Of a DNA stretch of 55,828 nt, positions 1 through 53,509 are shown in pieces; position 1 is the first letter of the stretch; every line of letters begins with the position of its first letter. Under the pieces are notes generated by a model. It saw only the letters and a list, made by a program, of their open reading frames with translations. It searched no databases and was not told the origin of the DNA. A program made the translations under genes and the position numbers. The DNA comes from Candidatus Kaiserbacteria bacterium CG10_big_fil_rev_8_21_14_0_10_47_16 (GTDB lineage Bacteria > Patescibacteriota > Minisyncoccia > Phycocordibacterales > UBA918). Where the stretch lies: contig PFBI01000004.1 in assembly GCA_002773395.1 (NCBI GenBank), positions 78,615-134,442 of the forward strand. The letters run 5' to 3'.

Positions 1-385
1 AGAAAAATTCGGTGTCGGTACAGAGTTTACCTTCGTCGCAGAGAGCATCCAGTTCTCCCTTCCTGAGCCAGCCAGACCACTGCCATTCGCTTTCATCTAT
101 AGCAATATCCTCGTCTGTTGTGGTGATAAAGAGATGTGAGATTTGATTTATTTCTGGAGTATCAAAATCTTGTGTAAAAAGATATGTGACTGGAAGTGTA
201 AGACCTGTCTCTTCTTCCAATTCCCGCACTGCTGCTTCCTCGGGCGTCTCCCCCTCATCGACATGTCCGCCAGCGCCGATACCGTAGCGGTTTGGAAATA
301 CCTTCTTACTCGCAAGCCGCTGATGCACAAAAAACTTCCCGTCACTGTCTTGTATAAATATAATCGCAATTTCTTTTTTAGACAT
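1..385 (-). CDS. NUDIX hydrolase, N-terminal ~128 codons (C-terminus runs off the left edge of the window)
   Basis: Own translation of the minus strand from ATG at 385-383: MSKKEIAIIFIQDSDGKFFVHQRLASKKVFPNRYGIGAGGHVDEGETPEEAAVRELEEETGLTLPVTY... A complete Nudix box GX5EX7REUXEEXGU is present (GGHVDEGETPEEAAVRELEEETGL). It is missing from the ORF track because no stop lies inside the window. Confidence 0.85.
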   Translation of the reverse strand, partial: MSKKEIAIIFIQDSDGKFFVHQRLASKKVFPNRYGIGAGGHVDEGETPEEAAVRELEEETGLTLPVTYLFTQDFDTPEINQISHLFITTTDEDIAIDESEWQWSGWLRKGELDALCDEGKLCTDTEFF

Positions 386-404
386 ATTGATGTTGGTGCT
401 CCGT

Positions 405-440
405 AACTCTTGAATTAACTCTAGAGTTAATTCAAGAGTT
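405..440. repeat. Perfect 36-bp palindrome AACTCTTGAATTAACTCT/AGAGTTAATTCAAGAGTT between the 165-aa ORF and the NUDIX gene
   Basis: Checked base by base: the reverse complement of 405-422 equals 423-440. A T-tract (GTTTTATT) follows only on the plus strand, where there is no gene. Confidence 0.9.
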
Positions 441-448
441 GTTTTATT

Positions 449-946
449 CTACCAAGGACACTCTTTTGTCTCTGTTCCAGGGATTATTTCTTGTCTCCCC
501 CAAACAAGAGCGTGGTTTGACCAAAATTCTTTACTTCGTTCAGGTAGATAGTTTCCTCCTGGAAATGACGGGGTGAGTTCCCCAACGAATGCCGTATAAA
601 GATTATAAGTACCGTCGCTTTCTTTTCTTAAATCAACAGTTACAAAGGAAGTTGATACAGGTTTTCTATTTTTTACAAAGCGAGCATATTGTTCTCGATG
701 AGGTCTCTTTGCGTATAGAGTCTCATCTTCCGCATCGGTTTTAACGAGGTCACTGAGACCAATTTCTCTTCCTGTGTCGACGTCTGTACGGACCCAATCT
801 TCAGTGGGTGTAAGTGTAGGAATGATTTCTTTTATAATCTCCATGAGTCCAGGAGTATCATCAAAATGAGTTGAAGCATGTGATGATTCCATGTCAACGT
901 ACACACTCATTCCGTTTCCTGTCTTCCCTAGAAATTCTTTTTGCAT
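449..946 (-). CDS. Hypothetical protein, 165 aa, no family recognised
   Basis: Clean ORF whose ATG (946) lies 1 nt after the stop of the upstream ORF (948), so the two are probably translationally coupled. AT-rich relative to the neighbours. Confidence 0.6.
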   Translation of the reverse strand: MQKEFLGKTGNGMSVYVDMESSHASTHFDDTPGLMEIIKEIIPTLTPTEDWVRTDVDTGREIGLSDLVKTDAEDETLYAKRPHREQYARFVKNRKPVSTSFVTVDLRKESDGTYNLYTAFVGELTPSFPGGNYLPERSKEFWSNHALVWGRQEIIPGTETKECPW

Positions 947-3504: not shown

Positions 3505-4840
3505 TATTTTCAGTCTTAGAGAGTAGTGTGTCGATACGGTTCATGTCACGCGGGAAGAGTGATGCTTCTTTCACGTTTACCAAACCTGCCATTTTCATAG
3601 TGAGACGTTCAAGTCCCATACCGATTCCGCCGTGTGGTGGAAGTCCGTACTTGAATGCTTGAAGATAGAATTCAAACTTTGTGGGGTCGAGGCCCTTTTC
3701 AGTGATGCGTCCTACGAGCTCGTCGTAGTTGTGGACGCGCTGGCTACCCGAACACATTTCGAGACCGCGGAAGAGAAGGTCGAAGCTATCGGTGAATTCA
3801 GGGTTCTCTTTATTCTTTGCTGTGTAGAACGGACGTTTACTTGTTGGGAATTGGGTAATAAAGACAAAGTCACTGCCAAGATTTTGCGCGGCGTATTCAC
3901 AGAGGAATCGTTCGTCTTCTGGTTCAAGGTCTGGTTCGTTGGTTTTATCTTCTCCTGTTTCTTTTTTAATAAGTTCTTGCGCTTCGCGAAGTGTGAATGT
4001 TGGAAATGCATCTGGCGCAAGCGGTGCTGGTACACCAAGGAGCGCAAGTTCTGCCGCACAATCATTCGCGACTGCGCTACTGATTGCACCCATGAGCTTT
4101 GTGACGAGTGCCATGACATCTTCATAGCTTTCGATGAATCCCATCTCGAGGTCGAGCATGGCAATTTCGCTCATGTGGCGAGTCGTCGCACTCTTCTCTG
4201 CGCGGAAGGTTGCGCCCGTTGCGAATACACGCTCAAACGCACCGACAAGAATCTGCTTATAGAGCTGCGGGCTGGTTGCGAGGTATGCGTCATGACCATC
4301 GAAGTACTCAACTTTAAATACCTCAGCGCCTCCTTCTGCATCGCCTCCTACAAGCTTTGGTGCTTGGAATTCAGTAAAGCCTTCGCCAGCAAGAAAGGTA
4401 CGGTAGGTAGTAAGGATGGTGTGTTGGATTTTGAAAACTGCACGCTCGTGCTCACGACGGAGTGTGAGCGGACGGTTATCAAGGAGTGTTTCAAGGGTGA
4501 GGTCGGCATCCATATCAAACGGCATTGCAGCGGCTTCTGAGAGTATTTCAATGCCGGTGATTTCGAGTTCGATGTCGCCGTTTATGACACCTTCCTTACG
4601 CATCTTCTCAGGCCGTTCGTTGACGATACCTGTTACCTTCACGACGTATTCTTGCTTCAGTGTTTTTGCAACTTCAAGTACCTCTGGCTTTCCAAACACA
4701 ACACCCTGCACTTTGCCTGAGCGATCACGAAAATCAAAAAAGGCCATCTTGCCCTGATCACGCGCAACGTCCACCCATCCGCTGATGCTGACTTCCTTTC
4801 CGATATGTTCTCCGAGTGCCGCGATGAGTGTTCGTTCCAT
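3482..4840 (-). CDS. aspS: Aspartate--tRNA ligase, short archaeal/type-2 form (possibly non-discriminating)
   Basis: 452-aa class IIb aaRS. Motif 2 is FRAEKSATTRHMSE; FDLLFRGLEMCSGSQRVH and motif 3 PPHGGIGMGLERL are present. The RPFY...SGSQR pattern fits AspRS type 2 better than AsnRS or LysRS. Confidence 0.75.
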   Translation of the reverse strand: MERTLIAALGEHIGKEVSISGWVDVARDQGKMAFFDFRDRSGKVQGVVFGKPEVLEVAKTLKQEYVVKVTGIVNERPEKMRKEGVINGDIELEITGIEILSEAAAMPFDMDADLTLETLLDNRPLTLRREHERAVFKIQHTILTTYRTFLAGEGFTEFQAPKLVGGDAEGGAEVFKVEYFDGHDAYLATSPQLYKQILVGAFERVFATGATFRAEKSATTRHMSEIAMLDLEMGFIESYEDVMALVTKLMGAISSAVANDCAAELALLGVPAPLAPDAFPTFTLREAQELIKKETGEDKTNEPDLEPEDERFLCEYAAQNLGSDFVFITQFPTSKRPFYTAKNKENPEFTDSFDLLFRGLEMCSGSQRVHNYDELVGRITEKGLDPTKFEFYLQAFKYGLPPHGGIGMGLERLTMKMAGLVNVKEASLFPRDMNRIDTLLSKTENNETQNDD

Positions 4841-22473: not shown

Positions 22474-24408
22474 TTACTCGAGTACCGCTTTGATGCGCCT
22501 GACACCTGCAGATGAAGATTCCTCTTTTGTAATCTTGAAAGTGCCGTGAATAGCGCCGGTATCTGGTACGTGTGGACCTCCGCAGAGTTCGCGTGAGTAA
22601 ATGTTCCCCTCATTATCCTTTACCGTGTATACGGTTACTACGTCTGGATACTTTTCCCAGAAACTTCCTTCAATCGTTGGATCAGTTTCAGCCTCAGCTT
22701 TCGGCATAGTATCGATAGACACACTCGCGCCTGCTTTGATGGCGCTGTTTACGTACTCTTCAACGCGTGTAAGTACTTCCTTATCAACCTTCTCTGGGTA
22801 GGTGAAGTCAAAACGAAGACGTTCTCCGGTGATGTTTGAACCGGCTTGGTGTACACCTTCACCAAGTTCCTTGCGGAGTCCTGCAAGGAGTAAGTGCGTT
22901 GCAGTATGGTACTCAACTACTTTTTCTGAATGGTCGGCAAGACCACCTTTGAATTTGTGTTCAGCTCCTGCACGAGATTTTTCACGATGTTCATCCATGA
23001 GTTTTTCAAAACCTTCCATGTCGACGTTCATTCCCTTTTCTTTTGCAATTTCTTGTGTGAGTTCAATCGGGAATCCGTATGTGGTGAAAAGTTCAAATGC
23101 GTTTTGCGCGCCGATGCGCTTCGTTGCGGTCGGTTTCTTGCTTGGATCAACGGTCGTCTTTCCATCTTTTTGTATGACGGGAACCGTAAGACTTACAGAA
23201 ATTTTATTAAAGCGTTTGAGACCGTTCTCGAGTGTTGTACGGAATTTCGTCTCTTCAGTATGAATAGCATCCATAATGCTCTGCTCTTTTTCTGCGAGGT
23301 TGGTGTAGTAGTCTTTATAGGTTGCAATCACACTCTGTGCGAGGTTTTTGAGCTCTCCTTCTGGTACACCAAGCAAATCTGCGTATCGCACGCTGCGGCG
23401 AAGGAGGCGACGTACAAAGTATCCCTGTTCACTGTTGCTTGGGAATACGTTGTCGCCGATCATAAATACTGCACCACGTATGTGGTCGGCAATAACACGG
23501 AACGCACCCTTGCCTTCTTCATAGCGTCGTCCAGAGAGTGTCTCAATTTGGTCAATAACATTCTTAAGAAGGTCAACGGTAAATACATCGGAACTCCCGT
23601 TCCCTGCAGCAGCAATACGTTCAAGTCCACCACCGAAGTCTACATTTTGTTTTGGAAGTTTTTCAAACCCTTTTTCAGTTTTGATGTATTCCATGAATAC
23701 CGAGTTTCCAATTTCAAGAAAGCGACCGCAATCACAGTTTGGATGACAGTGCTCACCGAATGCAGGATTGTGTGCTGTTCCAAAGTCGTAGAACACTTCA
23801 CTGTCAGGCCCCCCGATTTCTCCTACAGGCATGTTCGCCGGTTTTCCTGCGCGACTCCACCAGTTTTTATCACCGTAGTAGAAAATACGTTCCCCATCTT
23901 TCATCCCGCGGGAAGCACCTTCTTCTTCAGTGCCCATGAACGCAGCTTCTGAAGAGACATTCTTTGTCGCAAAGAGTTCTTGCCAAATAGAAACAGCCTC
24001 ATCATCTTTTGGTACACCAGCACCTTCATCGCCTGCAAAGACCGTAACGTAGATTTTTTCAGGGTCGAGACCTACTTTATCCGTAAGGAATGTATAGAAA
24101 AAAGGAAGCTGTTCTTTTTTAAAATAATCTCCGAGTGACCAGTTGCCGAGCATCTCAAAGAAGGTTGTGTGACGATTGTCACCAACTTCATCAATATCTT
24201 CTGCACGGAAGCACTTTTGTGAGTTTGCGAGGCGGGTGCCCTTCGGGTGTGTTTCGCCCATGAGGTATGGCACGAGCGGCTGCATACCGCTTCCGGTGAA
24301 GAGTGTGGTGGGGTCATTTTCAGGTACGAGTGCAGAGGACGGGATAATTGCATGTCCCTGCTCTTGCATAAACGCTAGATATTTTGCTCGTATTTCGTTC
24401 CCTGACAT
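22474..24408 (-). CDS. alaS: Alanine--tRNA ligase, short form (644 aa, no C-Ala domain)
   Basis: N-terminal FTGSGMQP and RHTTFFEMLGNWS, with the editing-domain motifs HTATHLL and CGGPHV. It ends shortly after the editing domain. Confidence 0.9.
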   Translation of the reverse strand: MSGNEIRAKYLAFMQEQGHAIIPSSALVPENDPTTLFTGSGMQPLVPYLMGETHPKGTRLANSQKCFRAEDIDEVGDNRHTTFFEMLGNWSLGDYFKKEQLPFFYTFLTDKVGLDPEKIYVTVFAGDEGAGVPKDDEAVSIWQELFATKNVSSEAAFMGTEEEGASRGMKDGERIFYYGDKNWWSRAGKPANMPVGEIGGPDSEVFYDFGTAHNPAFGEHCHPNCDCGRFLEIGNSVFMEYIKTEKGFEKLPKQNVDFGGGLERIAAAGNGSSDVFTVDLLKNVIDQIETLSGRRYEEGKGAFRVIADHIRGAVFMIGDNVFPSNSEQGYFVRRLLRRSVRYADLLGVPEGELKNLAQSVIATYKDYYTNLAEKEQSIMDAIHTEETKFRTTLENGLKRFNKISVSLTVPVIQKDGKTTVDPSKKPTATKRIGAQNAFELFTTYGFPIELTQEIAKEKGMNVDMEGFEKLMDEHREKSRAGAEHKFKGGLADHSEKVVEYHTATHLLLAGLRKELGEGVHQAGSNITGERLRFDFTYPEKVDKEVLTRVEEYVNSAIKAGASVSIDTMPKAEAETDPTIEGSFWEKYPDVVTVYTVKDNEGNIYSRELCGGPHVPDTGAIHGTFKITKEESSSAGVRRIKAVLE

Positions 24409-24539
24409 TTCCGTGATTCTACCACAATATCACCATTTCTCTAGGGTTTATGATAAACTCTGAATTACACTTGTCCCCGTAGCTCAATGGAGTAAAACGA
24501 TATGGTATATCGTTTTACCAGTTGCGTCCTATAATATAA

Positions 24540-24644
24540 ATGTTCTTTAAAAAGGCCTCCCTGTAGCTCAATGGATAGAGCAACTCCGTCCTAAGGAGAA
24601 GATGTAGGTTCGATTCCTACTGGGGAGACCTTTTTAAAGAACAT
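24540..24644 (+). repeat. Perfect 16-bp inverted repeat ATGTTCTTTAAAAAGG / CCTTTTTAAAGAACAT clamping the tRNA-Arg gene
   Basis: Arms at 24540-24555 and 24629-24644 were checked base by base. They stack on the acceptor stem with a single C/A mismatch. Confidence 0.9.
24557..24628 (+). tRNA. tRNA-Arg (anticodon CCU)
   Basis: Hand-folded cloverleaf: acceptor CTCCCTG/TGGGGAG (two GU pairs), D stem GCTC/GAGC, anticodon stem CTCC/GGAG with loop GTCCTAA, 4-nt variable region, T arm GTAGG-TTCGATT-CCTAC, discriminator A. It has an unusual C1-G72 pair and no encoded CCA. Confidence 0.8.
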
Positions 24645-24695
24645 GGAGAAAACGATGTGGGTTCGATTCCTGCTGGGGACACTTGAACGGACAGT

Positions 24696-24752
24696 CTAAC
24701 GTAAAACACAAACGGCCGGCATTCCATGCCGGCCGTTTGTGTTTTACGTTAG
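24696..24752. terminator. 57-nt near-perfect palindrome (27-bp stem, 3-nt centre) between the tRNA locus (+) and the glutaredoxin gene (-)
   Basis: CTAACGTAAAACACAAACGGCCGGCAT-TCC-ATGCCGGCCGTTTGTGTTTTACGTTAG was paired position by position. It sits between convergent transcription units. Confidence 0.7.
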
Positions 24753-24757
24753 TCTAT

Positions 24758-24991
24758 CTAGACCTTTAGAAGTTCACGGAGTTTTGCTTCGTCAAATCCG
24801 ACGATAACATCGTCACCGATGCGGATAACTGGTACACCGAGTTGTCCCGTCAGCTCAACCATCTCCTGTCTCTTTGCAGCGTCTTCTGCAACATTGATAT
24901 CTTCGAATGCAACATTGTTTTCTTTAAAGAATTCCTTTGCTGCGTGACAAAAGTGGCAAGTGGGTGTGCTGTAAATTGTTACTGTTTCCAT
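24758..24991 (-). CDS. Glutaredoxin/NrdH-like redoxin
   Basis: 77-aa ORF with TIYSTPTCHFC (CxxC after beta1) and GVPVIRIGD. Confidence 0.8.
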   Translation of the reverse strand: METVTIYSTPTCHFCHAAKEFFKENNVAFEDINVAEDAAKRQEMVELTGQLGVPVIRIGDDVIVGFDEAKLRELLKV

Positions 24992-25032
24992 GATGGTACT
25001 CGTTATACTTTATAAGTTCGCCCAGTATACCA

Positions 25033-25446
25033 TTATCTCCAAAAGAGGAATACGTTATACCAATGCGGAGCCGTGAGTGTGTCGGAATTGTTTGATTGGG
25101 ATGCGTCTACATTCTTCTTTTCAGCGTTATCGACGATAATTACCACCTGCTCCCCTTCTTTTGCTGCATCAAAACGATTTCGAAGCTCTTCCTCCTTTCC
25201 GCGATCCTTTTTTAGATATTCCACCTTTCCTTCAAGTGTTGCCGCTCGCTCAGAGAGGCTTGCGAGTTCGGCAGTTTTTTCTTCACGTTTCTGATCAATC
25301 TCTTGTGCAACGGTAAATCGTTCAAATACACTTTTTCCGAGGAGGAAAATCAAAATAACAAGAATAGCGATTGTTACCTTTGAGTAGAGTAACCCGCGAA
25401 TCTTTCGTTTTTCGTAAAAGTCGAACATGTGGTAATATTTTAACAC
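25033..25446 (-). CDS. Septum formation initiator (FtsB/DivIC-like)
   Basis: 137-aa ORF with one TM helix followed by a coiled coil and a GEQVVIIVD-type tail. The start may be the ATG at 25428. Confidence 0.55.
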   Translation of the reverse strand: MLKYYHMFDFYEKRKIRGLLYSKVTIAILVILIFLLGKSVFERFTVAQEIDQKREEKTAELASLSERAATLEGKVEYLKKDRGKEEELRNRFDAAKEGEQVVIIVDNAEKKNVDASQSNNSDTLTAPHWYNVFLFWR

Positions 25447-25447
25447 T

Positions 25448-25567
25448 ATGTCATTACTTTTTCATAAGAAGACGAAATCAGCCCTCAAGTGGATTTGGAT
25501 AGTTGTTGCTACGCTCATAATCGTTAGTATGATTATGGTGTACTCAGGGGGCGCAGGTCTCTTTTAG
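25448..25567 (+). CDS. Possible 39-aa single-TM peptide
   Basis: Own translation gives MSLLFHKKTKSALKWIWIVVATLIIVSMIMVYSGGAGLF. It is one of the few plus-strand ORFs, has no clear SD and is below the track cut-off. Confidence 0.3.
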   Translation: MSLLFHKKTKSALKWIWIVVATLIIVSMIMVYSGGAGLF

Positions 25568-25572
25568 TCTGA

Positions 25573-27363
25573 CTATTCGTCAGAATCCTTCACCATTTTC
25601 ATAAAGACATCCTGCGGGATGTTTACTTTTCCGCGTTCGAGCATTCTCTTCTTCCCTTTCTTTTGCTTTTCTCGCAGTTTCATCTTTCGAGTAATATCTC
25701 CTCCGTAGAGCTTTGCGGTAACGTCCTTCTTCATCGCTGAAAGTGAGCGAGATGCAATGATACGTCCGAGTGCCTTTGTTTGAATCTTGGTCACAAACAT
25801 TTGCCGTGGAAGAATTTTATACAGACGCTCTACGACTGCCTTGGCGTCAGACTCAATACGACGAGCGCCAACAACACGTGAAAATGCAGGAACAAGTTCA
25901 TCAGCAATCAGTACGTCGAGTCGTGCAATATCAGCGGCACGCATTTCTGCAATTTCGTATGAGAGTGACGCGAAGCCACTGGTGGCGTTTTTTAGTTTAT
26001 CAAAGAAGCCGCGCATGAGTTCACGAAGTGGCATTTCGACAACCAAGAGATTGCGGCCATCACCAAATACTTCAGTATCAATCACCTGCGCTTCGTGGTC
26101 GTAGAGGAGTGTCATGGCGTTCCCCATATATTCTGGAGGAAGAATAATCTGTGCAAGAATCCATGGTTCACGCACGGTTACCTTCTTTCCATAATCAGGA
26201 AACCGTGAAGCGGCGTAGATTTCTTCAATTTTTCCATCTTCCCACGTTATTTCATATGAAATAGAAGGTGCCGTTACAATCAGTTCGAGATCAAACTCGC
26301 GCCGTAGTCGTTCGGTAATGATTTCGAGGTGAAGCATGCCGAGGAATCCACATCGAAAACCACGACCGAGAATACCAGATGATTCTTCCTCGTATGAAAG
26401 CGATGAGTCAGAGAGTTTGAGGCGATCGAGCGCTTGCTTGAGCATAGTGAAGTCGTCCTGACTCTCAGGAAAGACCGATGCCCATACCACGGGGTGCGAG
26501 TCACGGTATCCATCGAGCGGTTCCTTGGCGCCACGTTCGTGAGCGAGGGTGTCTCCGACGCGAGCGATGCCTGGTTCTTTAATACCGGTGACGATGTACC
26601 CGATTTCTCCTTCTCGAAGTTCAGGCACCGCTTGTTCTTCAGGTGAAAGTATTCCAATCTCAAGTGCGGTGAAGGATTTGTTTGCGACGAGAAATTTAAG
26701 TGTGTCTCCCTTCTTTACACTGCCTTCAAATACACGGAAGTAGACAGTGATGCCGCGGTGATTCGAGTAGTGGAAGTCAAAAATGAGTCCGCGAAATTCA
26801 GGTTTTTCAAACTGTGCTGGCGCGGGAATGCGCGCGCAGATTTCTTCAAGTAGTTCCGGCACTCCCTCTCCTGTTTTTCCAGAGACTGCGAGGATCTCTT
26901 CGGCATTGCATCCAAGTAAGGTTACGATTTCGCTGGTGACATCAGCGATGCGCGCGTGTGGAGCATCAATCTTAGTGAGGATTGGAATGATGGTGAGTTT
27001 TTGTTCGCGTGCCATTTGGAGTGTTGTGAGTGTCTGTGCCTGTACACCTTGTGTACTATCGACAAGGAGGAGAACCCCCTCAACAGCTTTGAGCGCACGT
27101 GATACTTCGTATGAAAAGTCGATGTGACCGGGCGTATCGATGAGGTTGAGTTCGTATTCTTCCGCGCCGCGCATATAGCGCATACGAACAGGCTGCATCT
27201 TGATAGTGATGCCGCGCTCGCGCTCAAGTTCCATTGAATCGAGCACCTGCGCCTTCATCTTTCGGGCTTCCACGGTACCGGTTACTTCGAGCATGCGGTC
27301 GGCAAGTGTCGATTTTCCGTGGTCGATGTGGGCGATAATAGAAAAATTACGAATTTGTTTCAT
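25573..27363 (-). CDS. lepA: Elongation factor 4 (LepA)
   Basis: 596-aa ORF with IRNFSIIAHIDHGKSTLADR, DTPGHIDF and a LepA C-terminal domain. Confidence 0.95.
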   Translation of the reverse strand: MKQIRNFSIIAHIDHGKSTLADRMLEVTGTVEARKMKAQVLDSMELERERGITIKMQPVRMRYMRGAEEYELNLIDTPGHIDFSYEVSRALKAVEGVLLLVDSTQGVQAQTLTTLQMAREQKLTIIPILTKIDAPHARIADVTSEIVTLLGCNAEEILAVSGKTGEGVPELLEEICARIPAPAQFEKPEFRGLIFDFHYSNHRGITVYFRVFEGSVKKGDTLKFLVANKSFTALEIGILSPEEQAVPELREGEIGYIVTGIKEPGIARVGDTLAHERGAKEPLDGYRDSHPVVWASVFPESQDDFTMLKQALDRLKLSDSSLSYEEESSGILGRGFRCGFLGMLHLEIITERLRREFDLELIVTAPSISYEITWEDGKIEEIYAASRFPDYGKKVTVREPWILAQIILPPEYMGNAMTLLYDHEAQVIDTEVFGDGRNLLVVEMPLRELMRGFFDKLKNATSGFASLSYEIAEMRAADIARLDVLIADELVPAFSRVVGARRIESDAKAVVERLYKILPRQMFVTKIQTKALGRIIASRSLSAMKKDVTAKLYGGDITRKMKLREKQKKGKKRMLERGKVNIPQDVFMKMVKDSDE

Positions 27364-27412
27364 GTGGGGGTTACTCTACAGTATGGCTCTAAAAAGTAAA
27401 CGGTTGCGGTCG

Positions 27413-29098
27413 CTATACCGACAATGAGTCTTCGTCTTGTACGGGTACGATGTCGGTCTTAAAGAGACGCTTCCGGAGAGCATTGTAAATCTCAACAACT
27501 TCAGGACTTCCGGTAAAGAAATAGGTGAGGCCTGCAGTGATGATACCAAGTACTCCCGCGAGCATACCTTGGAGGAAGATGGTGAGGAGGGTCTGTGTTT
27601 CAAGGACGCTTACAAAGAGATTAAGAATAGAGTACGCAACGGTACCTGAGAGAATCGCAGCAAGGAGCGCACGGAGGAAGTGCGCGGTAAGGTCTGAAAG
27701 TTTGAAGCCGAGTTTTCGTGCGGTAAGGACGAGGAGAACAATACTGTGCACAAGGAGCGCGACGGAATAGCCGAGTGCGAGCATGAGTACTTCAGTGCCC
27801 GGTACGCCCTGTACACGCATGATGGTTTCGATGAAGGTACGGAATCCTTCGTGGCTCACAAAGAATGCGTATGAGAAGAATGAACATGCCAATATACCAA
27901 ACGCTGAGACAAGTGTGATGTAGAACGGAATACGTGTGTTCTGAGCCGCGTAAAGCGCACGAACGAGGAGGAGGTTGATACCCTGCGCGAGAAGTGAGAA
28001 TGCAAAGAGTGCGAGTACCGCAGCAGTGAGACGGGTGTCATTCCAGTTGAAGGCACCGCTCCCGAGTACCACGCGCACAAACTGTGCGCGGATCACAATA
28101 ATGAGCGCAAGGAGCGGCAGTGACCAAAACATAATGTGTCGAAGTGCCGACGTAATGTGGAGCCGGAACTCGTTCATTTTTTGTTCTGCAAAGAGCTGGG
28201 CGAGCATTGGAAACGCCGCAACCGAGTAACTCACGCCGATAATTGCGAGCGGAACCGATTGTAGGTTAAAGGCAAACTGGAATACTGATACCGAACCAAT
28301 ACTCATTAAACTCGCAAAACTTACCAATCCAAGAAGTACTATTTGGTGAAGAGAGAGCGTGAGTGCTCGTGGAAGTGAGATGGTAAGCACGCCGCGAATT
28401 TCAGCGAAGCGCGGACGTACCCATGGCTTTGGCATGAGTTCGCTACTGACAACAAACGGCATTTGAATGGCGAGGTGAAGGAATGCGCCGATAATTACAC
28501 CGTACGCGAGACCCTCGAGGCCGAATATCGGATATAAAAAGAGTACACCACAAATAATACCCGCGTTATAAAGAAGCGGGCTTATTGCATAGAGTACGAA
28601 ACGGTGCCCGAGCTGTGTGATGACACCGAGGAGACTCGAGAGACCAAGAAGGAGCGGTTGGAGCAAGAGAATGCGAACGAGAAGTACAAGCTCGGAAGTA
28701 TGTTCAACAAAGCCGGGGAAAATAAGCGGTACGAGGTACGGCATGAAGATTCCAATACCGAGCGCGAGAATGATATAGATGATCAGGAAAAACGAAAAAA
28801 TCTGAGAGAGCAAGTTTTGCGCACGCTCACTATTTCTTCCGTCAATACGTTCAGCAACGAATGGAATGAGCACGTACACGGAGAGCGTTGACGCAAAGAG
28901 TACATAGAGTAAATCCGGAATACGGAATGCTGCGTAGTAGAGGTCGAGGGTTGTCCCTGCACCAAATTGGTGCGCGAGTAATCTGTCGCGCACCAATGCA
29001 AGAATTTGTGAACCAAAGGTAAATATTGCAAGTACGTACGCGGCCTGATGAAGACCTCGTACCTCCTTGTACATGACATTAAGTACTCTTCGAATCAT
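27413..29098 (-). CDS. murJ: Lipid II flippase MurJ
   Basis: 561-aa ORF with 14 or so TM helices. The N-terminus SQILALVRDRLLAHQFGAGTTLDLYYAAFRIPD is typical of MviN/MurJ. Confidence 0.85.
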   Translation of the reverse strand: MIRRVLNVMYKEVRGLHQAAYVLAIFTFGSQILALVRDRLLAHQFGAGTTLDLYYAAFRIPDLLYVLFASTLSVYVLIPFVAERIDGRNSERAQNLLSQIFSFFLIIYIILALGIGIFMPYLVPLIFPGFVEHTSELVLLVRILLLQPLLLGLSSLLGVITQLGHRFVLYAISPLLYNAGIICGVLFLYPIFGLEGLAYGVIIGAFLHLAIQMPFVVSSELMPKPWVRPRFAEIRGVLTISLPRALTLSLHQIVLLGLVSFASLMSIGSVSVFQFAFNLQSVPLAIIGVSYSVAAFPMLAQLFAEQKMNEFRLHITSALRHIMFWSLPLLALIIVIRAQFVRVVLGSGAFNWNDTRLTAAVLALFAFSLLAQGINLLLVRALYAAQNTRIPFYITLVSAFGILACSFFSYAFFVSHEGFRTFIETIMRVQGVPGTEVLMLALGYSVALLVHSIVLLVLTARKLGFKLSDLTAHFLRALLAAILSGTVAYSILNLFVSVLETQTLLTIFLQGMLAGVLGIITAGLTYFFTGSPEVVEIYNALRKRLFKTDIVPVQDEDSLSV

Positions 29099-31598: not shown

Positions 31599-31723
31599 AA
31601 TATTACTTCCCAAATAATTACTAATTTGTCCTTATAGCATACCACGGTCATATCCGTAGCTTCGGTTTTTAGTGTGTTGATATACAGAAAAAGGCACCCT
31701 TTCGGGCACCTTTTTCATGTATA

Positions 31724-32058
31724 TTTGTCTATAAGCCGGATTCTGTTCTCACGTGAGTGAGTGATAGTCATTTACCTAGGTGTACTGTTGCCAGTACACT
31801 CGAGCGGCTCAAACCTACGCGAACGTAGGAGTACGGCCTTGCATGCAGGTAAGGATTTAGCCGTTTCACCTCTCATGTTGCCATGAGAGCTATTCCACAA
31901 TTGCGGAATCCCGTTTCTTTCGATCGGGGCGTCTCTGCTCGCACCTCTACCGCTCTCGCGGTCGACGGGTGTTACCCGCTACCCTCCTCCACGGTAAACC
32001 GTGGGCATGTCCGGACTTTCCTCTAACTACCGAAGTAGTTAGCGACTATCAGACATCG
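31724..32058 (-). ncRNA. rnpB: RNase P RNA (bacterial type)
   Basis: The minus strand carries the universal P4 strands GAGGAAAGTCCGGAC (complement of 32006-32020) and ACAGAATCCGGCTTAT (complement of 31731-31746). P3 is a hairpin TAACTAC-TTCG-GTAGTTA. P1 is TGTCT/AGACA and P2 is ATAGTC/GACTAT. A TATAAT lies about 10 nt upstream. The ends are approximate. Confidence 0.9.
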
Positions 32059-32089
32059 GTATTATACAATAAAAAGTTATTGAGAGCAA

Positions 32090-52106: not shown

Positions 52107-52128
52107 AGCTGCCCGACAGGGACTCGAA
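52107..52128 (-). repeat. Truncated tRNA-Gln 3'-end copy 2 (22 nt)
   Basis: AGCTGCCCGACAGGGACTCGAA is identical to 53437-53458. The sequence diverges where the T-stem 5' strand would be, so no T arm can form. Confidence 0.9.
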
Positions 52129-52373
52129 GCTTACAGCTTCAGTACAGGTTGTCGATATTTTTGTTCGGTTGTCGCCTCCTAAAATATCAGGCAACAATAT
52201 CAGGCAACCTTTTCGAGCCCTTAGAAAACAGTCCACTGGACTATTTCCTCGGCCAGCTTGTAACGCAAAAATCCGCTCACCGCGGATTTTCACTAACAAG
52301 CTGGCCTCGTCGGTCTCGTAATTTTTTCCATCAAGCCCCAGAAGGCTTTTTTACTGATATCTATTTTATCATT

Positions 52374-53225
52374 TTAACCCTCTTCGGAATAAGGCTTTAT
52401 TTCATCATCAAAAATATCAAATCCAGAAGGCAATCTTCTTTTTAAAATAGAGGCTGCCAACGTCCAATACATCAAAGTCATAATTAAAAATAAAATATAT
52501 TTTATAAAAACAGGAGTTTCCAAGCCACTTTTAGGTATAAATTCTGTAACTAAAACAAAAAAAGGTGTGATTATCAGAAAAATTCCTAAGATTTTTATTC
52601 TACTCCTCCTTTTTATCTTTTTAAAATAATCTGAAATAGAAGGAATTCTGTTTGCAATTGGATCACCTATTTTTCTCACAGAACCGAAACCTTTTATGTC
52701 ACCCGTAATTTTAATATTATCACCAGAATCACCAGTATGAGAAAATTGAATTATTATACCTTCATTCTTGTCAAAATAATCAAATTTTATTTCTAATTCA
52801 TTTTGTAAATGTTTACCTGGGTCATCAGGATTAACAACAGGAACAATATTAAAACCATTAGATTCATTACTTTTATGGATTATCTCAAAAGCAAGAAAAT
52901 TAGAACCATTAACGCACTTAACTTTCATAGGATTGCTCTTTGCAACATCATCGTAATTTATTGTTTCACTTCCGGAATTCCAAAGTGCCACCCTAGCAAT
53001 AGAGAGATTTTCAACTTTTGAGCCCAGGTAGCTTATATCTAAATCATTTATTCCACCTACAGCATTCTTAATTAAGTTAGTGCTTCTAACAGCATAAAGT
53101 GGCTTTCTGTTTTTTATACTTTTTCTATAAAAAACAAAAGTTAAGATAAAACCAATAATTGTCAAAAATACAAATATGTAATCTGTTGGAGTAATATTAT
53201 TTATAATTTCTTTAATTTTTTCCAT
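52374..53225 (-). CDS. Hypothetical membrane protein, 283 aa, very AT-rich
   Basis: One N-terminal and two C-terminal TM helices flank a beta-rich middle domain. Two sampled lines give about 25-27% GC. No family was recognised. Confidence 0.6.
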   Translation of the reverse strand: MEKIKEIINNITPTDYIFVFLTIIGFILTFVFYRKSIKNRKPLYAVRSTNLIKNAVGGINDLDISYLGSKVENLSIARVALWNSGSETINYDDVAKSNPMKVKCVNGSNFLAFEIIHKSNESNGFNIVPVVNPDDPGKHLQNELEIKFDYFDKNEGIIIQFSHTGDSGDNIKITGDIKGFGSVRKIGDPIANRIPSISDYFKKIKRRSRIKILGIFLIITPFFVLVTEFIPKSGLETPVFIKYILFLIMTLMYWTLAASILKRRLPSGFDIFDDEIKPYSEEG

Positions 53226-53267
53226 GAAATAATTCTAACACCTCGTACTCCGAACCTATCTCAAACT

Positions 53268-53286
53268 TGCTGCCCGACAGGGACTC
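53268..53286 (-). repeat. Truncated tRNA-Gln 3'-end copy 1 (19 nt)
   Basis: GCTGCCCGACAGGGACTCG is identical to 53438-53456. Confidence 0.9.
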
Positions 53287-53436
53287 GGTCACGAGTTACT
53301 AACTCACTCCGTTCATAAGTACTCTCGACCCCGACGGGTAAAACAGTCCACCGGACTGTTTTCTTCCGTCTTTCTCGTTCCTGTCTCGGCGCTACGACAC
53401 GTAAAAAGACTTGCAGAAGCAAGTCTTTTTACGTGT
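53287..53436. repeat. Copy D of the dispersed non-coding element, lying exactly between a tRNA-Gln 3' fragment and the intact tRNA-Gln
   Basis: GTCACGAGTTACTAAC, CTCACTCCGTTCATAAGTACTCTCGACCCCGACGG, the hairpin AAAACAGTCC-ACC-GGACTGTTTT and the hairpin A5-GACTTGC-AGAA-GCAAGTC-T5 are followed by ACGTGT. Confidence 0.75.
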
Positions 53437-53438
53437 AG

Positions 53439-53509
53439 CTGCCCGACAGGGACTCGAACCCCAATTACTTGGACCAAAACCAAGCGTCCTACCATTAGAC
53501 GATCGGGCA
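53439..53509 (-). tRNA. tRNA-Gln (anticodon UUG)
   Basis: Hand-folded 71-nt cloverleaf: acceptor TGCCCGA/TCGGGCA with the bacterial Gln U1:A72 pair, G73 discriminator, D stem GTCT/GGAC, anticodon arm CTTGG-TTTTGGT-CCAAG, T arm TGGGG-TTCGAGT-CCCTG. Confidence 0.9.

Follow-up and report, generated by a model that had tools for sequence, protein, structure and literature searches.

A tRNA-Arg(CCU) gene closed by complementary flanks and nested in the remains of a second tRNA-Arg(CCU) gene on a patescibacterial chromosome

How does a complete tRNA gene come to stand between the two halves of another gene for the same tRNA, and what is the role of the complementary sequences that flank it? The question is raised by a 55,828-nt stretch of Candidatus Kaiserbacteria bacterium CG10_big_fil_rev_8_21_14_0_10_47_16 (contig PFBI01000004.1, positions 78,615 to 134,442), referred to here as the window, in which a tRNA-Arg(CCU) is enclosed by a 16-bp inverted repeat (the clamp) and bracketed by two tRNA-Arg-like pieces (the outer gene). 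An earlier note, made from the letters of the window, had described this arrangement and offered three readings of it: a tRNA-carrying element that inserted into and replaced a resident gene, an intervening sequence within a functional tRNA gene, and an RNase III-type processing stem. The reading favoured here, with a probability of about two in three, is that a clamped tRNA-Arg(CCU) inserted into the resident gene and took over its decoding, the clamp serving to insulate or process the new tRNA. The parts of the nested unit are as follows.

24473-24491, plus strand: 5' piece of the outer tRNA-Arg-like gene, tRNA positions 1-19 (acceptor 5' strand, D-stem 5' strand and D-loop; G1 type)
24492-24518, plus strand: conserved hairpin with a perfect 12-bp stem and a 3-nt loop
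24519-24539, plus strand: spacer carrying GCGTCCTA and TATAAT (24530-24535)
24540-24555, plus strand: left arm of the clamp (leader strand), forming 16 perfect Watson-Crick pairs with 24629-24644
24557-24628, plus strand: inner tRNA-Arg(CCU), functional-looking, with a C1-G72 pair, discriminator A at 24628 and CCA not encoded
24629-24644, plus strand: right arm of the clamp (trailer strand), partner of 24540-24555
24645-24681, plus strand: 3' piece of the outer tRNA-Arg-like gene, positions 39-73 (C72 type)

The inner tRNA is the sole tRNA called at the locus by either program: ARAGORN reports a tRNA-Arg(cct) at 24557-24630, and the Rfam tRNA model scores 58.6 bits at 24557-24628, against a gathering score of 29. 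With a cloverleaf above that threshold and a defined anticodon it is a canonical bacterial tRNA, as the earlier note had held. The repeat finder returned arms of 22 nt (24540-24561 and 24623-24644; 95% complementary), in which the 16 perfect pairs are followed by a C/A mismatch and then by the first part of the acceptor stem, and thus reproduced the inverted repeat of the note; the 16 pairs stand 1 nt from each tRNA end, as in a leader-trailer helix. The 12-bp hairpin and the TATAAT box were also found where they had been placed. The hairpin is single-copy within the window, and so is the clamp arm, its own partner aside.

Both outer halves are present and tRNA-Arg-like. In local alignment, 17 of 18 nucleotides of the 5' piece (24474-24491) are identical to positions 2-19 of the inner tRNA, and the 3' piece (24647-24682) is 83% identical to the inner 3' end across 36 nt (31/34 aligned nucleotides across positions 39-70, with a 3-nt gap). 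The two halves score 15.5 and 21.0, while about 90% of 107 control loci score 9 or less. The note had denied the outer gene any anticodon arm, a description that needs amending: the 3' piece starts at position 39 and therefore includes the anticodon-stem 3' strand and a 7-nt variable loop, followed by an intact T arm (GTGGG/TTCGATT/CCTGC), the acceptor 3' strand and the discriminator. Possibly, GCGTCCTA in the spacer is a remnant of the outer anticodon loop.

The 209-nt unit folds into nested helices at -79.9 kcal/mol (z = -6.8), and none of 200 shuffles is as stable. A chance origin was rejected on the shuffled folds, the single-copy arms, and a flank-pairing survey and fixed-register pairing statistic described below. 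An assembly artefact was also rejected: over 560 nt around the locus, two JGI metagenomes and two Logan SRA assemblies agree with the window at 100% identity, so that the locus is base-for-base the same in four independent assemblies. The population occurs in the source metagenomes JGI 3300025018 and 3300008255 and in SRR6053076 and SRR6240789. These were reached by exact-protein look-ups with the glutaredoxin (Grx) and alanyl-tRNA synthetase (AlaRS) of the window and hold identical copies only, with no variation. When the insert is removed in silico, ARAGORN finds no valid tRNA in the spliced constructs, which counts against the note's second reading for the window. Rfam assigns no family to the outer halves or to the whole unit, even at E <= 10, and a known RNA family was rejected for both. 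On the comparative data given next (empty sites in relatives and decay of the outer acceptor in locus L206), the outer gene of the window appears to be a dead shell, not a spliced tRNA.

The orthologous nested unit is present in L206, a locus with AlaRS 80% and LepA 88% identical to those of the window and with the same LepA-DivIC-Grx order. Within the unit the two loci are about 85% identical, and this similarity breaks off exactly where the outer gene ends on its 5' and 3' sides, beyond which the sequences cannot be aligned. The inner tRNA is identical at 70 of 72 positions, and CGTCCTATAATA, directly 5' of the left arm, is invariant. In the outer gene, only 5 of the 7 acceptor pairs remain in L206, where one both-sided change breaks a pair, and the 5' piece is about 55% conserved; the T stem is identical in both loci. 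The 12-bp hairpin shows one both-sided change in L206 (T-A to C-G), one A.A mismatch and a 5-nt loop. The imperfect direct repeat that the note had seen around the inserted block is present in the window (18/19 with one indel), but only 6 nt of it are left in L206. Because it is not conserved there it is no target-site duplication, and it is not the conserved repeat of an attachment (att)-type event either.

In four further relatives (L215-L218; LepA 81-83%, with a MurJ-LepA-DivIC-Grx block), one plain G1-C72 tRNA-Arg(CCU) stands beside Grx, with neither clamp nor extra halves. This is the uninterrupted empty site for which the earlier note had proposed a search. In L217, 60 nt separate the tRNA from Grx and the two genes converge, as they do in the window. 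Since a Grx homologue shares the locus with tRNA-Arg(CCU) in about 30 sampled loci, the Grx-adjacent slot is ancestral. Compared over 34 positions with the resident tRNA of L216 and L218, the window's outer 3' half matches at 29 and its inner tRNA at 25, and the outer gene is of the same G1-C72 type as the resident tRNA of the relatives. The simplest reading of these comparisons is that the nested state arose in the ancestor of the window and L206 by insertion into a resident G1-C72 gene, which would have been decaying since; we infer a single insertion at the origin of the window locus. At larger distances the synteny is lost, since an AlaRS-anchored search of GTDB genomes gave 80 loci at 45-70% identity, of which 60 were scanned and all lacked a tRNA upstream of AlaRS. 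The upstream neighbourhood is also different, with no tRNA, for AlaRS homologues at 73-75% identity.

As an observation on the slot itself, the C1-G72 pair (24557/24627 in the window) occurs in 14 of 107 sampled tRNA-Arg(CCU) loci, G1-C72 being usual, and all strongly clamped tRNA-Arg genes are C1-G72. The conserved Grx-adjacent slot holds G1-C72 genes in some lineages and C1-G72 genes in others.

The clamp arms are unrelated in sequence between lineages, and their cores are nevertheless perfectly paired (81 Watson-Crick pairs and 4 G.U). When six loci are set in a fixed register, 77 of 78 cells are paired; column shuffles average 40.3, with none of 2000 reaching the observed value, and sliding the partner strand cuts pairing to about 50%. 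Between window and L206, 11 of the 16 clamp pairs are unchanged, two have changed on both sides and still pair (G-C to A-T and A-T to C-G), one is now C.A and the outermost two are lost. Between loci L138 and L140, 13 homologous clamp pairs show three both-sided changes and no mismatch. Two independent orthologous pairs thus give five both-sided substitutions against one internal mismatch, which argues that clamp pairing is under selection, as does the near-complete pairing of unrelated arms across the six loci. Taken together, the relatives hold no ordinary pair of adjacent tRNA genes, Rfam holds no family for the unit and the arms covary, these being the three points on which the earlier note had said that its idea could fail.

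What the clamp might do was approached by folding. The probability of the inner cloverleaf is 0.94 with the native clamp, equal to that of the tRNA alone, and drops with shuffled arms to 0.82 in the full unit and to 0.56 in a transcript from 24542; the acceptor-stem probability with shuffled arms is 0.67 and 0.28, respectively. These models suggest that the clamp is probably a leader-trailer helix that shields the inner tRNA from the near-identical outer halves. It may be a double-strand processing site as well, and the third reading of the note, an RNase III-type processing stem, is plausible in that it would fit a conserved, covarying helix. The TATAAT box may be the -10 box that serves the inner tRNA; by its position, transcription would begin with the first bases of the left arm, which would make the arms a true leader and trailer.

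According to the favoured reading, a complete tRNA-Arg(CCU) with its two complementary flanks would have inserted, in the ancestor of the window and L206, into a loop region of the resident tRNA-Arg(CCU), the occupant of the ancestral Grx-adjacent slot. The inner C1-G72 tRNA could then have assumed decoding, and the resident G1-C72 gene would have turned into a shell that has since lost positions 20-38 and whose acceptor pairing would be on the way out. Transcription is proposed to start just 3' of TATAAT, so that the left arm would begin at or close to the 5' end of the transcript. Leader and trailer, 16 nt each, would pair and their helix would stack on the acceptor stem, closing the inner tRNA into a domain of its own, so that the outer 3' half would be unable to compete for the acceptor strand. 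The resulting helix of about 23 bp could offer a site for an RNase III-like double-strand nuclease. Once the clamp is cut, maturation would be completed by RNase P, 3' trimming and CCA addition, while the transcript would end at a long hairpin (24690-24758) downstream of the unit.

Several points weigh against this reading. The outer 3' half and the 12-bp hairpin are far better conserved between the window and L206 than neutral DNA, more so than is expected of a dead shell; co-option is possible, as is gene conversion with the inner copy. Positions 20-38 are missing between the outer pieces, which also share the 18/19 direct repeat, so that the window locus alone cannot separate insertion plus deletion from more complex histories. 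Template-switch correction of palindromes can keep arms perfect without any RNA function. No convincing -35 box was found upstream of the inner tRNA and no similar TATAAT upstream of the window's other RNA genes, and the promoter role is for this reason put forward tentatively; transcription start, clamp cleavage and expression are predictions from sequence. Finally, the material comprises 55.8 kb of the genome and pieces of about 10 kb from relatives, with a second tRNA-Arg(CCU) possible elsewhere in any of these genomes, and the metagenome sample of at least 120 loci was drawn with one tRNA core pattern.

That sample was obtained by scanning metagenome contigs for the core of the window's tRNA, with stems and flanks left free. 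Flank pairing was surveyed among 232 tRNAs in 1.4 Mb of related DNA: it amounts to 0-7 bp in 226 of them and to 13-24 bp in six, namely the tRNAs of the window, L138, L140, L188 and L110 and the tRNA-Phe of L144. In the window, L138, L140, L188 and L144, the clamped tRNA is bracketed by both halves of a second gene for that tRNA. L110 (13-bp flank pairing) was set aside as a different case: its G1-C72 gene lies behind two tRNAs in a repeat-rich spacer and lacks outer halves. The position of the inner tRNA and the state of the outer gene differ among the loci.

L138: inner tRNA in the T-loop; the outer gene folds as a full cloverleaf round it and is called as a tRNA only at a relaxed threshold
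L140: inner tRNA at the T-loop site shared with L138; outer gene as in L138, with a 27-nt deletion of positions 22-48
L188: inner tRNA in the D-loop; the outer gene is a valid 72-nt tRNA-Arg(CCT) after two inserts are removed
L109: inner tRNA between positions 21 and 22; the outer gene is a valid 72-nt tRNA-Arg(CCT) after both inserts are removed
L168: inner tRNA within the anticodon; a tRNA-Ala(UGC) nested in a near-identical copy, which becomes a valid tRNA-Ala
L144 (Phe), L175 (Gly) and the window: the inner tRNA replaces the middle of the gene; outer gene degenerate, not a tRNA
L092, L166, L122 and L114: position not applicable; remnants or a closed shell only

Removal of the inserts from L109, L188 and L168 restores tRNAs of 72-75 nt that ARAGORN accepts, and a single precise insertion is therefore the simplest reading where the outer gene is intact. 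The second insert of L109 is a 41-nt hairpin at the canonical 37/38 site of the outer gene. In the nested loci, inserts sit in D, anticodon or T loops, and the inner and outer genes are always for the same isoacceptor; in L138, L109, L188 and L168 the two outer pieces abut exactly, with neither overlap nor gap. Contig markers (RsgA, DprA, DivIC, FtsH) are bacterial, and an archaeal host was rejected on such markers for L188, L140, L144 and L092, L109 being left unassigned. Self-similar flank remnants accompany 5 of 14 C1-G72 tRNA-Arg(CCU) genes and 4 of 93 others (p = 0.0017), and are also found at 12 of 109 bystander tRNAs of other isotypes. The tRNA-inside-tRNA layout thus recurs for Arg(CCU), Phe(GAA) and Ala(UGC), and probably for Gly(CCC). 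In other words, the architecture that recurs in these bacteria is that of a complete tRNA lying inside a second gene for the same tRNA and closed by a leader-trailer helix that covaries, and the outer genes range from precisely interrupted but intact to nearly erased.

Individual loci show further features. In L168 (1061-1296; low contig coverage) the outer tRNA-Ala(UGC) is broken inside the anticodon, between TTTG and CAA, and the right flank holds 16 nt that repeat exactly, in inverted orientation, 9 nt of left flank together with the first 7 nt of the tRNA. This copy would compete with the acceptor stem, and it hints at templated DNA synthesis. In L144 (about 220-510, minus strand) the tRNA-Phe(GAA) has a clamp of about 22-24 bp and lies in a degenerate tRNA-Phe shell, GCTGGGG...CCCCAGC, whose acceptor differs from the inner one by two compensated pairs; the shell holds two more hairpins. 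A closed tRNA-like shell stands about 30-130 nt upstream of the C1-G72 tRNA-Arg(CCU) of L114 (minus strand; tRNA at 586-656 of the reverse complement). Its acceptor, GCGCCCT/AGGGCGC, surrounds a CCCCGAC/GTCGGGG hairpin, the loop of which, GCCCAAGGG, resembles the joined ends of a CCCC...CAAGGGG tRNA. This shell may be a scar from the loss or relocation of an inner tRNA. In L096 (minus strand), whose tRNA lies at 4456-4526 of the reverse complement, a structured, GC-rich region of some 130 nt is found downstream of the gene and is flanked by two copies of the tRNA 3' end, one inverted and one direct (CCCCTCGGCAGGAATCGAAC ... TTCCTGCCGAGGGGA). In its body, positions 8-61, this tRNA does not differ from the window's inner tRNA. 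Homologous hairpin inserts, CCGCGCC...GCGGGCGGG, occupy the outer anticodon loop (position 36-38) of L109 and L086, and in both L122 and L086 the T-loop has an insert behind GGTTCG (57/58). Insertion of hairpins at specific loops is therefore a recurrent event that does not depend on the nested tRNA. The comparison of L109 with L086 was not counted as proof of cassette mobility, though their inserts are homologous and apparently 10 nt apart. Gene conversion is suggested in L086 by the near identity between its outer 3' piece and its own inner tRNA, while the intact, divergent outer gene of L109 hints at a foreign inner tRNA or a still-functional outer one.

Could the nested unit be something that moves? 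In this stronger form of the favoured reading, tRNA and clamp make up a self-targeting replacement cassette that inserts, duplication-free, into a loop of a gene for the same isoacceptor, disables it and substitutes for it. The proposal is possible but rather improbable. Of the earlier note's first reading, the insertion and replacement of a resident gene stand, on the empty sites of L215-L218 and the outer decay in L206; its 'element' part does not, as neither a target-site duplication, nor a second copy in the window, nor a recombinase was found. If true, such a cassette could spread and persist in Patescibacteria as an 'addictive' gene replacement, and would explain the alternation of G1-C72 and C1-G72 tRNA-Arg(CCU) at one conserved slot. 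At the loci with intact outer genes the unit could behave as an intervening sequence in the shape of a tRNA, to be cut out by RNase P and RNase Z; tRNA introns would then be of three kinds, and Bacteria would have their first that is processed by proteins.

The explanation that survives best among the rivals, although it is unlikely, places the palindrome at the DNA level: the arms would be the terminal inverted repeats of a small cassette, or a quasi-palindrome whose perfection is maintained by template switching at replication, and the RNA helix would have no function. Arms of 13-24 bp would suit terminal inverted repeats, and the few G.U pairs in the arm cores are what a DNA palindrome would leave, while the tRNA stems at these loci hold 1-3 G.U each. 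The right arm of L168 looks templated, and template-switch correction would yield 'compensatory' changes automatically. On the other hand, no target-site duplication was found at the precisely interrupted loci (L109, L188, L168), no transposase lies near the unit, and arms and hairpin are single-copy in the window, with arm sequences unrelated between lineages. An internal C.A is tolerated in L206 and an internal G.U in L144. Both arms would be transcribed with the tRNA if the promoter lies upstream, and their helix rescues folding in silico. The precise, duplication-free loop junctions of L109, L188 and L168 also argue against DDE transposition and the typical overlap of tyrosine recombinases. 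A phage origin was rejected, since phage records match the inner tRNA only and none covers 80% or more of the unit; two tRNAs on viral contigs are plain G1-C72 genes without a clamp.

A second rival, also improbable, is that the outer pieces were left by two separate tRNA-targeting integrations, each of which displaced one end of the resident gene and supplied a replacement, and that the clamp is later or accidental. Elements that insert in the T-loop and duplicate the tRNA 3' end do exist in these genomes, loci with a 5' remnant only are known (L092, L166, L122 and the tRNA-Arg(TCT) of L188), and the two outer pieces of the window do not abut. The exact abutment in L138, L109, L188 and L168 is, however, unexpected from two independent events, and the complementary flanks round the inner tRNA are left unexplained in every nested locus. 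The end of the T-loop elements is missing from the nested locus as well, and no integrase was found.

The T-loop elements themselves were seen both in the window and in relatives. The window holds, at 52108-53509 on the minus strand, a tRNA-Gln(TTG) (53438-53509) whose 3'-terminal 18-mer, GAGTCCCTGTCGGGCAGC, is present in three direct copies, one in the gene, one at 53269-53286 and one at 52108-52125; the farthest is preceded by CGACAACCTGTACTGAAGCTGTAAG/CTTCGA. The 1143-nt segment between 18-mer copies contains a 283-aa open reading frame (ORF; 52374-53225), for which no Pfam or PHROG match was found. The segment looks like one or two insertion elements in the T-loop. An element end, CTGTACTGAARCTGTAAG/YTTCGA, abuts the displaced 3' ends of three tRNA genes on three contigs:

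L216, 8198-8410: tRNA-Arg(CCU)
L121, 451-660: tRNA-Gly(CCC)
Window, 52126-52147: tRNA-Gln(UUG)

The complete insert measures no more than about 115-120 nt in L216 and L121. These inserts form a promiscuous family of T-loop-targeting elements with miniature derivatives. The family marks tRNA genes there as active insertion targets and is without the clamp architecture; the nested unit contains neither the element-end motif nor any ORF, and no recombinase was found.

Least probable is that the outer gene is still functional, the clamp-tRNA unit being excised by RNase P and RNase Z or by a splicing endonuclease and the outer halves then ligated or acting as a two-piece tRNA. The restored tRNAs of L109, L188 and L168 speak for it, as do the outer gene of L109, which keeps every stem paired despite many differences from the inner tRNA, and the loop positions of the inserts, which are those of archaeal non-canonical introns. 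Cuts by RNase P and RNase Z leave 3'-OH and 5'-phosphate ends, which the clamp could hold together. For these three loci the intervening sequence of the note's second reading may still apply. For the window it is very improbable: the outer gene lacks the D-stem 3' strand and a complete anticodon arm, makes no tRNA under any excision tested and does not keep its acceptor stem in L206, the outer genes of L140 and L144 are as degenerate, the contig markers are bacterial, excision of the inner tRNA alone would leave a clamp hairpin of about 30 nt in a loop, and the minimum free energy folds contain no 3-4-3 bulge-helix-bulge (BHB) motif, for which no dedicated search was made.

The genes that flank the nested unit are housekeeping genes. 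The window belongs to the chromosome of a member of the Patescibacteria (candidate phyla radiation, CPR), an ultra-small bacterium, and the closest relatives of its AlaRS and LepA are labelled Paceibacteria, Parcubacteria, Nomurabacteria or Kaiserbacteria. The neighbouring features are listed below.

22474-24408, minus strand: short AlaRS, on one side of the nested tRNA locus
24690-24758, no strand assigned: long hairpin (arms of 33 nt that are 94% complementary) separating the tRNA unit from the convergent glutaredoxin gene
24758-29098, minus strand: Grx, DivIC, LepA and MurJ, on the other side of the locus
31716-32061, minus strand: divergent class-A RNase P RNA (Rfam 117 bits against a gathering score of 100)

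The hairpin at 24690-24758 is likely a bidirectional terminator that would end the tRNA transcript. A terminator-like hairpin stands in the equivalent place in L206 and L217, and matches of 24690-24758 to miRNA models were rejected as generic hairpin models below the Rfam threshold. Although several helices of the RNase P RNA are weakly aligned or shortened, an RNA-based RNase P is present in the organism for processing of the clamped precursor. In L206 (2040-3940), three unannotated ORFs (98, 239 and 123 aa; no Pfam family on record) are placed between Grx, the nested tRNA unit and AlaRS; they are not found in the window.

Nested loci go unnoticed in the annotation of metagenome-assembled genomes because tRNA finders report the inner gene only, and the outer halves are open to misreading as att sites or tRNA fragments. 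In the full texts searched, among which few subscription journals were covered, no earlier account of nested or clamped bacterial tRNA genes was found. If the unit is mobile or duplicative, it would represent a new route of tRNA gene replacement, and the tRNA pseudogene debris of reduced genomes would have a new origin as well. If the intact outer genes are expressed, bacteria would have a protein-processed tRNA intervening sequence.

Among known systems, miniature inverted-repeat transposable elements (MITEs) and insertion sequences share terminal inverted repeats with the unit, here as 16-bp perfect arms, but a target-site duplication was found neither in L109, L188 and L168 nor in the window lineage, and multiple copies were not found in the 55.8-kb window. 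Williams, in 2002, is said to have described how phages and islands integrate at tRNA genes and duplicate the tRNA 3' end. As in such att-type integration, a functional tRNA stands here beside a partial copy of itself, a class seen in the window's tRNA-Gln, L216 and L121. Att-type integration, however, leaves only a distant 3' fragment as a direct repeat flanking the element, whereas in the nested unit both 5' and 3' pieces tightly bracket the tRNA, the flanks are inverted repeats and there are no element genes. As in organellar tRNA punctuation, the embedded tRNA would be cut out by RNase P and RNase Z; the flanking RNAs are, in contrast, halves of a tRNA-like gene paired through the clamp.

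We know of no interruptions in bacterial tRNA genes other than group I introns, which Reinhold-Hurek and Shub reportedly found in 1992 in anticodon loops, including that of an Agrobacterium tRNA-Arg(CCU). The resemblance lies in a bacterial tRNA-Arg(CCU) interrupted near the anticodon loop. The present inserts differ in that they are 105-153 nt long and carry a tRNA, and no group I core (Rfam Intron_gpI, about 200 nt or more) was found at the locus, even at E <= 10. The disrupted tRNA genes of archaea and some eukaryotes include BHB introns at canonical and non-canonical positions, split tRNAs and permuted tRNAs. They have insertions in the D-, anticodon- and T-loops, sometimes several per gene, and removal of the inserts likewise restores an exact tRNA in L109, L188 and L168. 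Complementary flanks forming a long helix recall the split tRNAs of Nanoarchaeum. Disrupted tRNA genes are the subject of two reviews (PMC4090602, PMC3978253). Unlike archaeal disrupted tRNAs, the nested loci have bacterial hosts, no BHB motif was recognised in their minimum free energy folds, and the outer gene of the window cannot be restored; unlike BHB introns, the insert is a complete tRNA of the same isoacceptor.

To our knowledge, the leaders and trailers of bacterial pre-tRNAs are normally unpaired for RNase P. The closest parallel to the clamp is found outside tRNA genes, in the leader-trailer (RNase III) stems of bacterial 16S and 23S rRNA, in which complementary flanks directly 5' and 3' of the mature RNA also close it into a helix-bound domain. 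The clamp is of comparable length once it is stacked on the acceptor stem (16 + 7 bp), and it covaries; in E. coli 16S rRNA the leader-trailer helix covaries as well and is essential for the formation of active 30S subunits (PMC10250234). Unlike these stems, the clamp encloses a single 72-nt tRNA and does so inside the remains of another tRNA gene. If its helix is a processing or insulating device, the leader-trailer principle of rRNA would extend to tRNAs.

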